Counted from the first letter of the stretch, positions 2,537 through 64,000 are shown. The stretch: DNA of 64,000 bases from an uncultured Gemmatimonadaceae bacterium (GCA_963781585.1 CAWAGQ010000011.1:224001-288000); one strand, 5' to 3'. Numbers and translations: made by a program. Notes: generated from the sequence alone by a model not told the origin.

Positions 2537-4399
2537 ATGCGAAATAGTTACCAAACGGGTTGCGCTCTTGCGCTCGCAGCTGCCACGGTGTTGGCCAGTC
2601 CCCTCGCCGGCCAGAATCCGCTCACCCGCCCGGCGGATGCCATCGAGGCGCGGTTCTCCATGTCGCAGCCGGTGGTCAACTATGCACTGACCATCACCGC
2701 AAACGACACGACCGGCTTCGACGTGACAATCCGAGTGCGCAACGCACCGGATACCTTCCGACTGGCGATGCCGCGGCATCCGGAGTACGACGAGCGCTAC
2801 TGGCGGTACGTCGCGAATATTGGGGTCGACTCGCCTCGCGGCACGGCGAACGTGACACGCGCCGACAGCGCTCTCTGGCGCGTGACCGCCCCGGGCGGCG
2901 AAGCGGTGATTCACTACCGAATCGACGTGCCGCTGCCGCCGTCACAGTATCGCGGCGCGTGGCGACCGTTCCTCTCGTCCGAGGGCGCGCTGGTCGGCGG
3001 ACCGTACGGCGTCATGTACGTCGTCGGCGCGGAACTCGCGCCGTCGCACATCCGGATCGACGTGCCGGACGGCTGGACGATCGCGACCGGTCTCGAGCCG
3101 ACCTCCGATCCGAGCTTCTACTTCGCGCCGAGCGTCATGATCCTCAACGACTCACCGCTTCTGGTGGGCCCGCTGCGCAACTGGCGCTTCGACGTCGACG
3201 GCGTGCCGCATCGGCTCGCGTACCTGCCGATTGCGTCAGCAACGCCGTTCGACACCACCGGGTTCGTCGATCGCCTTCGTCGCATGGTATCGCAGGCCGT
3301 GGCGCTCTTCGGCCGCGCGCCCTACCGAGAATTCACGTTTCTGGTGCAGGACGGTGCATACGGCGCCCTCGAGCATCTCAATTCGGTCACGTTAGGCATA
3401 CCGAGCGCCGACCTGGCCCGGAACGTCGACGAGCCGTTGGAAGAGATCGCCCACGAGTACTTCCACGCGTGGAATATCATGCGGATCCGGCCGGCGGAAT
3501 ACCCGGCGGTGACGTGGGACGCGTTCCCGGCGGCCTCCGGGCTCTGGTGGAGCGAGGGGCTGACGATGTTCTACGCCGATCTGCTGCTCCGGCGGGCAGG
3601 AATCCCGGTCGCGCACGAAACGCGTACCGCACACCTCGAGTCGCTGATCGCGCGGTATCTCTCGGAGCCGGGAGATTCGCATCTCTCGCCCGAGCGCGTG
3701 AGTCGTGGCGCCTACGGCGCACCCGACGCCCTCGGCGACTATCAGGCCTCGACCCACCTGCAAGGCGAGTTGCTGGGCGCGATGCTCGATCTCATGGTGC
3801 GAAGTGCCACGCGCGGCACGCGGACCATCGACGACGTGATGCGTCTGATGATGCGCCGATACGGCGGCGCGGTGGGATTCCACAGTGGGGACATCGCTGG
3901 CGTGGTGGCGGCGGTCTGCGGGTGCGAGATGAAGACTTTCTTCGACACCTACGTGCGCGGCGCCGCGCCGATCGACTTCAACCGGTTCCTCGCCCTGGTC
4001 GGACTGCGGGTCGACATCACCAGGAGACCGGCGGTGGACGAGCGTGGGCAGCCGGTGCCGAACCGGCGGATCTATGTGTTCAATCCGGCGACGGACGCGT
4101 CGACGCGTCTGCTGCTGAGCGATCCGGAGAGCGAGTGGGGGAGAGCCGGATTGCACAGCGGCGACGTCATCATATCGATGAACGGGGCGAGTGTGCCGAG
4201 CTTCGCGGCGTTTCGCCAGATGGTGGCAGGCTGGCGCGTGGGCGACAGCGTGCGCGTCGTGGTGTCACGGCCCACCGGTCGATATTCGGCGACCGTGGTC
4301 ATCGGGCAGGCGCAGCAGGTCACCGCGCGGATCAGCGAGATCGACGGGGCGAGTGCGGCGGAGCGCAAGCTGAGGGTGGAGTGGGAGGCGGGGCGGTGA
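2537..4399 (+). CDS. M61 family metallopeptidase (glycyl aminopeptidase-like) with C-terminal PDZ domain
   Basis: Signal peptide; GALEH, HEYFHAWN zinc motif and WWSEGLT; AGLHSGDVIISMNG PDZ signature. Confidence 0.9.
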   Translation: MRNSYQTGCALALAAATVLASPLAGQNPLTRPADAIEARFSMSQPVVNYALTITANDTTGFDVTIRVRNAPDTFRLAMPRHPEYDERYWRYVANIGVDSPRGTANVTRADSALWRVTAPGGEAVIHYRIDVPLPPSQYRGAWRPFLSSEGALVGGPYGVMYVVGAELAPSHIRIDVPDGWTIATGLEPTSDPSFYFAPSVMILNDSPLLVGPLRNWRFDVDGVPHRLAYLPIASATPFDTTGFVDRLRRMVSQAVALFGRAPYREFTFLVQDGAYGALEHLNSVTLGIPSADLARNVDEPLEEIAHEYFHAWNIMRIRPAEYPAVTWDAFPAASGLWWSEGLTMFYADLLLRRAGIPVAHETRTAHLESLIARYLSEPGDSHLSPERVSRGAYGAPDALGDYQASTHLQGELLGAMLDLMVRSATRGTRTIDDVMRLMMRRYGGAVGFHSGDIAGVVAAVCGCEMKTFFDTYVRGAAPIDFNRFLALVGLRVDITRRPAVDERGQPVPNRRIYVFNPATDASTRLLLSDPESEWGRAGLHSGDVIISMNGASVPSFAAFRQMVAGWRVGDSVRVVVSRPTGRYSATVVIGQAQQVTARISEIDGASAAERKLRVEWEAGR

Positions 4400-4449
4400 C
4401 GCCGATGCCGCTCGGCCTACCTCTGCGTGCCAAGCGCCTGGCGGTCGGA

Positions 4450-5341
4450 CTACTCCGCGCGAATCGCCGCGATCGGATCGATGCGGGCCGCCCGTATCGC
4501 CGGCAGCAGCGCGGCGATTACCCCGACCCCCAGCAGCAGCCCGGCCCCGGTCGCCAGCGTCCCAGGATCGTGCGGCGAGAGGCCGTACACGAGACTCCGC
4601 GTCAGCCGCAGCAGCGGGAACCAGAGGACGAAGCCCGCCACGAGTCCCCCGGCAATTGTCCGCAGTGAATCCCGCAACACCACCCACGACACCGCCGCCG
4701 GCGAGGCGCCTAACGCCAGCCGCACGCCCATCTCATTCGTCCGCCGGGCTACCGAGTAGCTGATCACCCCGTACAACCCGATCGCCGCGAGCAGCAGCGC
4801 CAGCACGCCGAAGCTCCCGGCCAGCCGCGCCACCAGCCGCTCGGTCGTCAATCCGCGCTCGAGCAGTTGCTCGATCACCATCACGTCGCGCACGGGAAGG
4901 TTGGGATCCACCGACGCGAGTGCTGTCCGGATTCCGGCGATCGCGGCCTGCGGCGCGCCGGTGGTGCGTGCCTCGACGCTGGTGATGTACTCCTGCGGCC
5001 GTTGCGCCAGCGGGAAGAACACGAGCGGCGCCGGGGCTTCGCGCAGGGCGTTGACGCGGACATCGCGCACCACGCCCACCACCTGGAGCTCCGGCGGGTA
5101 ACCGGGGTCCAGGCGCCGGCCGATCACCGAGTCGGTACCGAAGAAGCGCTTCGCCGCGGCCTGGCTGATGACCACGACTCCGGGAGCGTCCCGGGTGTCG
5201 CGATCCGTGAAGGCTCGTCCCTCGAGCAGGGGGATTCCGACGGTCTGGAAATAGTCGGGCGTGACGACGTCCTCCTGACTGACGTTGGTCCCCGGCGCCA
5301 GCTGGCGGCCGGGCACCGAGTATCCTCTGAGTCGCCGCGAC
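4450..5341 (-). pseudogene. 3' fragment of an ADOP-family ABC permease, a diverged copy of the 3' end of 15373..18072
   Basis: [25 protein letters not shown] motif. Nucleotide similarity to about 15373-16265 is high but clearly imperfect, and homology ends abruptly near 5341. Confidence 0.85.
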
Positions 5342-62219: not shown

Positions 62220-62316
62220 TTCGCCGTACCAAGGCCCGAGCCCAAAGGGCCAGGACAAAGGCCAAACCCTGACGTGACTGCGGGTGTCCCATTTCGGCGC
62301 CACCACAATCCCCACC

Positions 62317-64000
62317 ATGAACACCGTGCCGCGCGATCGTTTGTCCCTGCCCTGGCTCGACCACGTCCGCCAGGACGTGCGCTACGCACTCCGTGGGCTC
62401 CGCCGATCGCCCGGTTTCACCGCGGCCGTCGTACTCACCCTCGGCCTGGGCATCGGTGCCAACGCGGCGATGTTCAACGTCATCGACCAGATGATGTTCC
62501 GGCCGTATCCGTACCTGCGTGATCCGGCCCGTGTGCACCGCGTCTACCTCCGCATGCCGGGGCAGAATCGCCAGAATCGCCAGGAGTCGTTCCCGTACAC
62601 GCGATACCTGGACCTTACGAAGTGGACGAATTCCTTCTCCCAGACCGCGGCGTTTTTCCCGGTCACCGTCGCGGTGGGCACCGGTGAGGCGGCGCACGAT
62701 CGTCCGATCGCCGCGGTGAGCGCGAGTTTCTTCGGGTTCTTCGACGCCCGACCGGTGGTCGGGCGATTTTTTGTAGCCGCCGAGGACACCGTGCCCGTCG
62801 GCGCGCGAGTGGCGGTCCTGAGCTACGCCTTCTGGAAGGCGCAGTTCGGCGGAGGCGATGTGATCGGCCGGCCGATCCAGGTGCACAACGTGTTGTGCAC
62901 GATCATCGGCGTTGCTCCCGAGGGATTCATCGGTGTGGCCGACGAGCAGGCCGGATCGGGCACGGGCTGGAGCCCCGATCTGAACCCGGGGCCGCCAGTG
63001 CTGTTCATGCCGATCACCACGTTCGGCGGCAACCAGGGCGGCGGCTCGTCGGTGGACTACTGGCTGCGCTACAACTGGGACTGGACCGAGATGATGGTGC
63101 GGCGCAGGCCGGGCGTCTCGATCGAGCAGGCGAGCGCCGACCTCACATTGGCGTACATCCGGAGCCGCGACGCGGCCCGTGCGATCCACTCGTGGATGCC
63201 GCGCACCGATCCGGTGCGCCCCCTTGCGCTGGCCGGCGCGCTGAAGACCGCGGCCGGGCCCTATCCCGGCCTGGAAGCGCGCACCCTGGTCTGGGTGACC
63301 GGAGTGGCGATCATCGTTCTGCTCATCGCGTGCGCGAACGTCGCGAACCTGATGCTCGCGCGCGCGCTGCGCCGGCGGAAGGAGGTCGCGCTGCGTCTCG
63401 CGCTCGGCGTCAGGCAGTCGCGGCTGGCGGGCCAGTTCCTCATCGAGGGACTGGCGCTCTCGCTCTGCGGGGGCGTGACGGGGCTCGCGATCGCGCAGTG
63501 GGGCGGGGCGGTGCTGCGCCGCCTGTTTCTGCCACCGGGAGGCGCGGCCGGGGTGGCCACCGACTGGCGAACGTTAGGCGTGGTGACGGCAGCGGTGGTG
63601 GTGGTGGGCGTGGTCACCGCGCTGGGGCCGATGCTGCTGACCGGCCGCGACGACCTCACGAGCGCGCTCAAGGCCGGGGTGCGTGAAGGCACCCATCAGC
63701 GCTCGGGACTACGTGGGGCGCTGGTGGTTTCGCAGGGCGCGCTGTCGGTCGCGCTGCTGGTGGGCGCGGGCCTGTTCGTTCGCAGTCTGGCGCACCTCGA
63801 GGACATGCGGCTGGGCTACGACGTGAATCCGGTGCTCCTGGTCAATTGGCAGCGCCGGGGCGAGCGGATGGACGCGAGCGATCTGGCCAATGTCCGGCGC
63901 CGGCTGCTCGATGCCGCGGGCACCATCCCGGGCGTTGAGCGCGCAGGATGGGCGAGCAACGTGCCCCTCCTGGGTTCATCGACGATGCCGCTGTTCGTGC
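62317..64000 (+). CDS. ADOP-family ABC permease, partial (runs off the window)
   Basis: Manual translation of an open frame: QDVRYALRGLRRSPGF..GIGANAAMF..IACANVANLMLAR..SQGALSVALLVGAGLFVRSL. Confidence 0.9.
   Translation, partial: MNTVPRDRLSLPWLDHVRQDVRYALRGLRRSPGFTAAVVLTLGLGIGANAAMFNVIDQMMFRPYPYLRDPARVHRVYLRMPGQNRQNRQESFPYTRYLDLTKWTNSFSQTAAFFPVTVAVGTGEAAHDRPIAAVSASFFGFFDARPVVGRFFVAAEDTVPVGARVAVLSYAFWKAQFGGGDVIGRPIQVHNVLCTIIGVAPEGFIGVADEQAGSGTGWSPDLNPGPPVLFMPITTFGGNQGGGSSVDYWLRYNWDWTEMMVRRRPGVSIEQASADLTLAYIRSRDAARAIHSWMPRTDPVRPLALAGALKTAAGPYPGLEARTLVWVTGVAIIVLLIACANVANLMLARALRRRKEVALRLALGVRQSRLAGQFLIEGLALSLCGGVTGLAIAQWGGAVLRRLFLPPGGAAGVATDWRTLGVVTAAVVVVGVVTALGPMLLTGRDDLTSALKAGVREGTHQRSGLRGALVVSQGALSVALLVGAGLFVRSLAHLEDMRLGYDVNPVLLVNWQRRGERMDASDLANVRRRLLDAAGTIPGVERAGWASNVPLLGSSTMPLFV

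Follow-up and report, generated by a model that had tools for sequence, protein, structure and literature searches.

A hyper-abundant non-palindromic octamer in Gemmatimonadaceae as a candidate DNA uptake sequence

A stretch of 64,000 nucleotides from an uncultured Gemmatimonadaceae bacterium (GCA_963781585.1, CAWAGQ010000011.1:224001-288000), hereafter the 64-kb window, was analysed for the 8-mer CGTTAGGC (reverse complement GCCTAACG), which was counted on both strands. This octamer is a signal of the DNA duplex that is orientation-independent, lineage-restricted and kept despite codon preference, and tentatively it may serve as an uptake sequence. Few bacterial lineages are known to carry a hyper-abundant short word, namely the Neisseriaceae with their DNA uptake sequence (DUS), the Pasteurellaceae with the uptake signal sequence (USS) and the cyanobacteria with the highly iterated palindrome HIP1, and each of these cases has been instructive on transformation, recombination and species barriers. 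The octamer joins this class of lineage-specific words with a new sequence and in a new phylum. In the titles and abstract openings of the literature matches listed, it was not found as a bacterial genomic motif, and no report of a hyper-abundant oligonucleotide in Gemmatimonadota was found.

Seventeen exact copies were present in the window, 11 on the + strand and 6 on the − strand, giving a density of 2.7 per 10 kb. An initial annotation of the same DNA had listed 16 copies; all its coordinates were correct and the copy at 8696 (+) had been overlooked, so that its strand split of 10 and 6 has to be amended. The variant TGTTAGGC that it placed at 47817 was present, and direct reading confirmed that the octamer is non-palindromic, CGTTAGGC being unequal to its own reverse complement. 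The 2-3 copies that it expected agree with the arithmetic of base independence, but stricter nulls gave lower figures: 0.98 copies in dinucleotide shuffles of the window (standard deviation 1.09, maximum 6), with none of 100 shuffles reaching 17, and 0.48 copies under an order-2 Markov model. Among all 8-mers of the window, the octamer ranked first in over-representation by far. Its inner 6-mers were nearly confined to it (GTTAGG 20 times, TTAGGC 21 times and CGTTAG 24 times) and, because these sub-words occur almost only inside the octamer, the maximal-order Markov expectation (17.1 versus 17 observed) is uninformative. Once two pairs due to duplication and one pair in an insertion sequence (IS) were discounted, about 14 independent copies remained.

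Genes of the window were called by the contrast in G+C content at third codon positions and then checked with Pfam, which gave 47 well-supported genes. Synonymous codons were shuffled keeping every protein and the overall codon usage, a usage that includes the TTA codons contributed by the octamer itself. Under this null 0.43 copies were expected in the window genes (maximum 5) against the 14 observed, a number reached in none of 1000 shuffles. In 16 octamer-rich related loci, described below, 144 in-gene copies were observed versus 4.15 expected, again with no shuffle out of 300 reaching the observed count. The excess was therefore 33-35 fold in the window and in the rich loci, far from the value near 1 that the initial annotation had named, for a shuffle preserving codon pairs, as a sign against its own proposal of selection (or drive) at the level of the DNA motif rather than of the protein. 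That proposal is also supported by copies in sense, antisense and non-genic DNA, by ordinary CTC or CTG leucine codons at the homologous positions of motif-poor relatives, and by the enrichment in sixteen further Gemmatimonadaceae-labelled loci while most other loci showed none.

Ten window copies in well-supported genes were read in the sense frame xCG TTA GGC, six of them encoding T-L-G and four A-L-G; the S-L-G also foreseen in the initial annotation never occurred in the window. Of the remaining copies, three were antisense in the frame CCT AAC (P-N), that at 8331 having to be added to those correctly described at 29563 and 49762, one was sense in the frame GTT AGG and three lay in an IS cluster outside well-supported genes. 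The copies and the one-off variant were located as follows:

3390..3397, +: sense in an M61 peptidase gene (2537-4399 +), ACG TTA GGC = T-L-G; duplicated at 12989
4708..4715, −: sense in an FtsX permease fragment (4450-5316 −), GCG TTA GGC = A-L-G; duplicated at 15631
8331..8338, +: antisense in a DUF772 transposase gene (7618-8373 −), CCT AAC = P-N
8696..8703, +: in the IS cluster, covered only by a doubtful open reading frame (7876-9189, no Pfam match), there in the frame xCG TTA GGC
11562..11569, +: left terminal inverted repeat of an IS256-like element (about 11520-12919)
12865..12872, −: right terminal inverted repeat of the IS256-like element (about 11520-12919)
12989..12996, +: sense in the duplicate copy, truncated, of the M61 peptidase gene (12943-13998 +), T-L-G
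15631..15638, −: sense in a duplicated-permease gene (15373-18072 −), A-L-G in the FtsX motif R-L-A-L-G-A
17437..17444, −: sense in the same duplicated-permease gene (15373-18072 −), ACG TTA GGC = T-L-G
27821..27828, +: sense in a helix-turn-helix (HTH, antitoxin-like) gene (27589-27912 +), A-L-G
28852..28859, −: sense in an M14 peptidase-like gene (28508-31198 −), GTC GTT AGG CCT = V-V-R-P
29563..29570, +: antisense in the M14 peptidase-like gene (28508-31198 −), CCT AAC = P-N
49762..49769, −: antisense in an alpha-2-macroglobulin gene (46310-52480 +), CCT AAC = P-N
52167..52174, +: sense in the alpha-2-macroglobulin gene (46310-52480 +), T-L-G
56340..56347, +: sense in an ABC-2 permease gene (55718-56551 +), T-L-G
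57460..57467, +: sense in a CarboxypepD_reg gene (57378-58007 +), A-L-G
63572..63579, +: sense in a duplicated-permease gene (62284-end +), T-L-G
47817..47824, +: one-off variant TGTTAGGC (TTG TTA GGC) in the alpha-2-macroglobulin gene, belonging to the halo of near-motif words

The octamer spelled 10 of the 57 [TASP]-L-G tripeptides of the window genes and contained 10 of the 18 TTA codons found in the 47 well-supported genes, so TTA was not equally frequent outside this context, the outcome that the initial annotation had regarded as contrary to its proposal. Outside the octamer, TTA was used at 0.48 per 1000 codons in the window versus 0.55 per 1000 in motif-poor relatives; with the octamer included, its usage was double that of the motif-poor relatives in the window and almost five-fold in the rich relatives.

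Related loci were retrieved with an alignment of 28 of at least 120 permease homologues, which gave 79 loci and 1.18 Mb from metagenome-assembled genomes labelled mostly Gemmatimonadota and Acidobacteriota. The best of these loci had 66% identity, which means that the genome of the window itself was not represented. For the window permease gene at 31506-33974 (−), the nearest database relatives showed 89% identity and the following ones 69% or less, and most of the few that were named carried the label Gemmatimonadaceae or Gemmatimonadales. Sixteen of the 79 loci were rich in the octamer, with 170 copies in 208,839 nt (8.1 per 10 kb) versus 3.4 copies expected and a peak density of 12.7 per 10 kb in locus L076. 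All sixteen, each on a different contig record, were labelled Gemmatimonadaceae or Gemmatimonas. The remaining 63 loci contained 15 copies in 974,230 nt versus 9.6 expected, with zero copies in 54 of them, and most Gemmatimonadota and nearly all Acidobacteriota loci were without enrichment. These counts bear out the lineage specificity suggested initially. At least 11 individual loci had CGTTAGGC as their leading 8-mer, and when the rich loci were pooled into four groups it came first in three of them and second in the other. No substitute hyper-abundant 8-mer ('dialect') of comparable excess was detected in 12 groups of motif-poor Gemmatimonadota loci. The word CGTCTAAC was considered as such a substitute since it appeared four times in L021, yet it did not recur in the group of this locus. 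Other locally repeated words, in unrelated loci, were ACTCCAAA (14 times in L045), ACTCCCAA (9 times in L057), ACTAAGCA and TAAGCACT (6 times each in L001), AGTAGCAA (8 times in L065) and AAGGGAGA (8 times in L070). The repeated words of these loci and of L021 probably belong to longer repeats.

In the rich loci, the fraction of compatible tripeptides that were encoded by the octamer depended on the reading frame:

[TASP]-L-G, sense xCG TTA GGC: 74 of 251 encoded by the octamer (29.5%)
P-N-[AVDEG], antisense CCT AAC G: 33 of 68 (48.5%)
[CSRG]-L-T, antisense xGC CTA ACG: 25 of 105 (23.8%)
V-R-x, sense GTT AGG C: 12 of 161 (7.5%)

In the two reading frames that contain a stop codon, zero octamers were found in these loci. 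The ranking of the frames appears to fit a trade-off with codon cost: the P-N frame would be the highest because none of its codons is very rare, and the V-R frame the lowest because it depends on GTT and AGG, which are less used. Seventy-four of the 170 copies were in-frame xCG TTA GGC and 58 were antisense, and 74 of the 149 TTA codons of the rich relatives were inside the octamer. At homologous positions the motif-poor relatives showed CGCTCGGC, CCCTCGGC, CGCTCGGG or CGCTGGGC, which are ordinary Leu-Gly spellings with CTC or CTG as leucine codon; the counts of these positions are many-to-one and dominated by permease paralogues.

Words differing from the octamer at one position were also in excess, with 325 found in 273 kb of motif-rich DNA versus 147.7 expected from 26 motif-poor loci. 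These reference loci were chosen by hand (25 labelled Gemmatimonadota plus L003, labelled Vicinamibacterales, which groups with them), leaving out L001, L019, L032, L034 and two Longimicrobiales-type loci. The excess of variants was greatest at positions 1 and 8 and for the synonymous intermediate CGTTGGGC. Between loci with 80-85% nucleotide identity, 54 of 85 aligned copies were conserved versus 25% of all 8-mers, and with 65-70% identity 41 of 198 versus 5.5%, these counts being pairwise and reciprocal and hence not independent. Turnover was also observed, as none of 3-4 copies was common to L026 and L076. The permease genes of L023 (7 copies) and L029 (no copy) are nearest neighbours, but this pair is uninformative on gain or loss because the approximately 3 kb that they share hold no copy in L023.

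The profile of the 170 copies of the relatives corresponded to a discrete 8-mer, and outside it only a G at −1 and a G at +8 (about 50% each) were apparent. In the window, the base at −1 was A in 9 of 17 copies versus 23 of 170 in the relatives, where G was the commonest (Fisher P = 4e-4), and this A may be a lineage-specific extension of the octamer, ACGTTAGGC. Over 17 sequences (the window and the 16 rich loci, all shorter than a replichore), 120 of 187 copies lay on the majority strand of their locus, whereas 115 would be expected from random orientation (95% range 107-124) and 150 from 80% polarity (minimum 133 in 2000 simulations). The octamer is consequently not strand-polarised, as had been noted at first sight. 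Neighbouring copies formed 87 direct, 42 convergent and 41 divergent pairs, with a median spacing of 921 nt and a distribution that was roughly exponential by eye; no regular period was seen in these 170 pairs, and no short-range one in loci of 22 kb or less. Seven pairs were within 100 nt and none of the 170 was an inverted pair of the terminator type. Of the relatives' copies, 144 were inside called genes and 26 outside them, in 18% of the DNA, so that the octamer is about equally dense in non-genic and genic DNA. At least one copy was carried by 76 of the 140 called genes, which belong to many unrelated families and include kinases, LigD ligase and primase-polymerase, a thioredoxin-like protein, an Mrp/ParA ATPase, major facilitator superfamily transporters, an aldo-keto reductase and a dehydroquinate synthase. 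Permease genes, which cover about 22% of the DNA by our tally, held 48 of the 170 copies and, for this reason, the retrieval of loci through permeases cannot explain the excess. A dispersed repeat of the repetitive extragenic palindrome or miniature inverted-repeat transposable element type was discarded, as flanks were not conserved and 144 of the 170 copies were inside called genes.

The reading that we favour, by analogy with the known systems, is that of a signal for DNA uptake of the DUS/USS type which molecular drive has spread, with a probability that we would place a little below even. A surface DNA receptor of the competence apparatus would bind the octamer, and DNA from kin would be imported preferentially. 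Homologous recombination would then install the incoming alleles that bear it, and the biased uptake would act as a molecular drive balancing mutation and codon selection. The octamer would thus spread wherever it can be written without changing a protein, even at the cost of the rarest leucine codon. Uptake, receptor and competence itself are the parts of this model that we infer. A metagenomic study of 19 soil populations, Gemmatimonadetes included, reports homologous recombination, as well as homologues of ComEC, for abundant soil bacteria taken collectively (PMC7305173). It is conceivable, with a probability somewhat lower again, that CGTTAGGC is the tag by which some abundant, uncultured Gemmatimonadaceae of soil recognise their own DNA in natural transformation, through a new receptor, and that this system has been strong enough to recode between a third and a half of the tripeptides compatible with it. 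If true, this would be the first DNA uptake sequence system outside Proteobacteria, leaving aside the still-debated cyanobacterial HIP1, and sequence-biased transformation among kin would shape the genomes of a dominant soil phylum. The octamer provides a lineage marker readable from sequence only and shows to what extent a DNA-level drive can override codon preference. Placed on donor DNA, it would be a handle on the natural transformability of hard-to-culture soil bacteria and a practical lead towards genetic tools for Gemmatimonadota.

Several observations weigh against an uptake function. No competence, pilus or DNA-receptor gene was found in two samples, the 54 window proteins and 95 neighbour proteins (the latter from 12 rich loci out of 16), which are tiny and cover less than 2% of any genome. 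Likewise, no link between Gemmatimonadota and an uptake sequence was found in the literature searched. The octamer is three times less dense in the window than in the rich relatives, and the window includes a motif-free stretch of 20.2 kb at 29571-49761 (P = 0.03 under uniform placement of 17 points, 0.08 with 14 points). Moreover, the IS cluster holds 4 of the 17 window copies, including the two within the inverted repeats of a single element, and in Neisseria mobile or recently acquired DNA is usually DUS-poor. The permease tree placed the rich loci in 3-4 clusters interleaved with motif-free loci, with the window as sister to the largest rich cluster (support 86); this was a quick maximum-likelihood gene tree of a paralogous family, which says little on species history or on the number of origins. 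Variants at position 3 were depleted (9 versus about 19 expected), which is not a prediction of a simple model of graded uptake. Finally, the above-background conservation is explained equally well by drive and by selection for any cis function.

The closest parallels are with DUS, of which there are about 1,900 copies of a 10-mer per Neisseria genome, and with kingDUS, which has 5,918 copies in the 2.4 Mb of K. oralis; DUS positions are described as restricted by stop codons, and over-representation together with conservation as explained by uptake bias plus recombination (PMC3630211). Like these sequences, the octamer is lineage-restricted, lies inside and between genes, avoids frames with stops and is accompanied by one-off variants (PMC3630211). 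As in the DUS of Neisseriaceae, which are read by the minor pilin ComP, it is a short non-palindromic word present about once per kb, far above expectation. In contrast, its sequence is unrelated to DUS, it has 8 nt instead of 10-12 nt and it comes from another phylum. Unlike DUS, it also lacks close inverted pairs of terminator type (0 of 170 neighbour pairs), and no dialect word was detected in the motif-free relatives. With respect to USS, work of the Redfield laboratory reportedly indicates that most copies in Pasteurellaceae are coding, in frames giving common tripeptides, and shape codon choice; in a similar manner the octamer fills 30-48% of the A/T/S/P-L-G and P-N-x tripeptides. USS consists of a 9-nt core with AT-rich flanking tracts, whereas the flanks of the octamer are nearly without information.

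The main rival of the uptake reading is a HIP1-like signal, in which a lineage-specific methyltransferase, a repair enzyme or a gene-conversion bias would regenerate or protect the octamer and any link with uptake would be only indirect; we consider it unlikely, but not to be neglected. HIP1 (GCGATCGC, in cyanobacteria) is an octamer described as 15-300 fold over-represented, conserved beyond codon conservation and written with non-preferred codons (PMC5861425). The word studied here shares the length, a large excess, which at 33-35 fold lies within the reported interval, the conservation above background and the non-preferred codons (PMC5861425), and the approximately two-fold depletion of its position-3 variants could reflect directional conversion. 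Nevertheless, HIP1 is palindromic and its internal palindromes are read by methylases (PMC4390886; PMC13756078), DmtA and DmtC, and it is quasi-periodic and phylum-wide, whereas CGTTAGGC is non-palindromic, is patchy within one family and showed no short-range period in the loci analysed. Further points against it are that most one-off variants were enriched rather than depleted and that no DNA methyltransferase or Vsr-like gene was found among the window or neighbour proteins, the methyltransferase-domain matches of the neighbours being of the CheR type or of generic types acting on small molecules. The two readings overlap in part, because HIP1 itself is now proposed as a watermark for uptake (PMC13756078).

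Less probable still, the octamer might be the binding site of an abundant lineage-specific DNA-binding protein, either a nucleoid-associated or chromosome-organising factor or a nuclease for which it would be a 'self' marker, and be kept dense by selection on the function of the chromosome. The conservation exceeding the background, the even spread across coding and non-coding DNA and the orientation independence expected for a binder of duplex DNA are consistent with it. However, the octamer occupies 30-48% of the [TASP]-L-G and P-N tripeptides, a recoding of which we know no example for nucleoid or segregation sites, and the spacing looks roughly exponential, without a regular period. To our knowledge, no site of this kind occurs at approximately 1 per kb with an excess of about 35 fold. 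Neither is a general chromosomal need apparent, because closely related motif-free Gemmatimonadota show no substitute word.

A polar signal controlling RecBCD/AddAB, as Chi, or FtsK, as the FtsK-orienting polar sequences (KOPS), was one of the options of the initial annotation and is disfavoured by the absence of polarity, to the point of being very improbable. Chi and KOPS are also over-represented non-palindromic 8-mers, and in the window the 11 + and 6 − copies go alongside a positive cumulative GC skew. Both signals are strand-polarised with replication and only modestly enriched, whereas the octamer is unpolarised, its 120 majority-strand copies being as at random (mean 115) and under the minimum of 133 for 80% polarity, with mixed orientations of neighbouring copies, and its excess of about 35 fold is far above that of Chi or KOPS. 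We give just as little credit to a codon- or RNA-level signal, either a motif of the mRNA or a TTA codon under regulation in a fixed context. Such a signal would agree with the in-frame xCG TTA GGC copies (10 of 17 in the window, 74 of 170 in the relatives) and with half of the TTA codons being inside the octamer (10 of 18 and 74 of 149, respectively), but 58 copies of the relatives are antisense, 26 are outside called genes and the top occupancy corresponds to the antisense P-N frame (33 of 68); the surplus of sense copies arises because the frames differ in the number of compatible tripeptides. An origin in chance or base composition, in a recurrent motif of proteins or in a dispersed repeat element is hardly credible, since in spite of the two window pairs from one segmental duplication, the two copies from one IS and the retrieval of loci via permeases in which the FtsX motif A-L-G-A is able to bear the octamer, about 14 independent window copies stand against about 1 expected, flanks are unconserved, only 48 of the 170 copies of the relatives are in permeases and 76 of 140 genes of many families carry it.

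The segmental duplication is located beside the IS cluster and comprises 3343-5340 and 12942-16263, with copy identities of 98%, 91% and 78%. The segment 3343-3642 matches 12942-13241 at 98% identity and accounts for the octamer pair 3390/12989, while 4448-4747 matches 15371-15670 at 91% identity and accounts for the pair 4708/15631; the two duplication-derived pairs suspected initially were thereby recovered. The M61 peptidase gene is whole at 2537-4399 and truncated at 12943-13998 and, conversely, the duplicated permease is whole at 15373-18072 and represented at 4450-5316 only by a C-terminal fragment. The IS256-like element (11520-12919) has imperfect terminal inverted repeats, each with the octamer followed by AGTC, and its Mutator-family transposase reading frame (11973-12767) matches only positions 20-240 of the 379 of the profile. 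Other remnants of mobile elements are a DDE_Tnp_1_6 piece (7170-7436 −), a DUF772 piece (7618-8373 −) and an rve-type integrase (9199-10341 −). Nine of the 17 octamer copies are in the first 18 kb of the window. The motif-free stretch at 29571-49761 contains two permease genes, beta-propeller genes, a gene of the uracil-DNA glycosylase (UDG) family and the beginning of the gene for alpha-2-macroglobulin.

Long MacB_PCD/FtsX permeases of the duplicated kind are encoded by at least five genes, which were identified together with fragments among 15373-18414, 20386-22827, 31506-33974, 42227-45379, 52660-53085 and 62284-64000. Two of these genes are preceded by PadR-family regulators (18082-18414 and 45005-45379), an arrangement characteristic of Acidobacteriota and Gemmatimonadota. 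The octamer at 27821 is found in the HTH antitoxin-like gene (27589-27912), which shares one base with a gene for a Gp49/HigB-like toxin (27230-27589). The alpha-2-macroglobulin gene (46310-52480) encodes 2,056 amino acids with MG2, bait region, A2M and bMG10 domains, and it is directly preceded, with a 4-base overlap, by the UDG-superfamily gene (45540-46313). The only RNA gene identified by tRNA and Rfam scans of the window was a tRNA-Asn (GTT) at 291-365.

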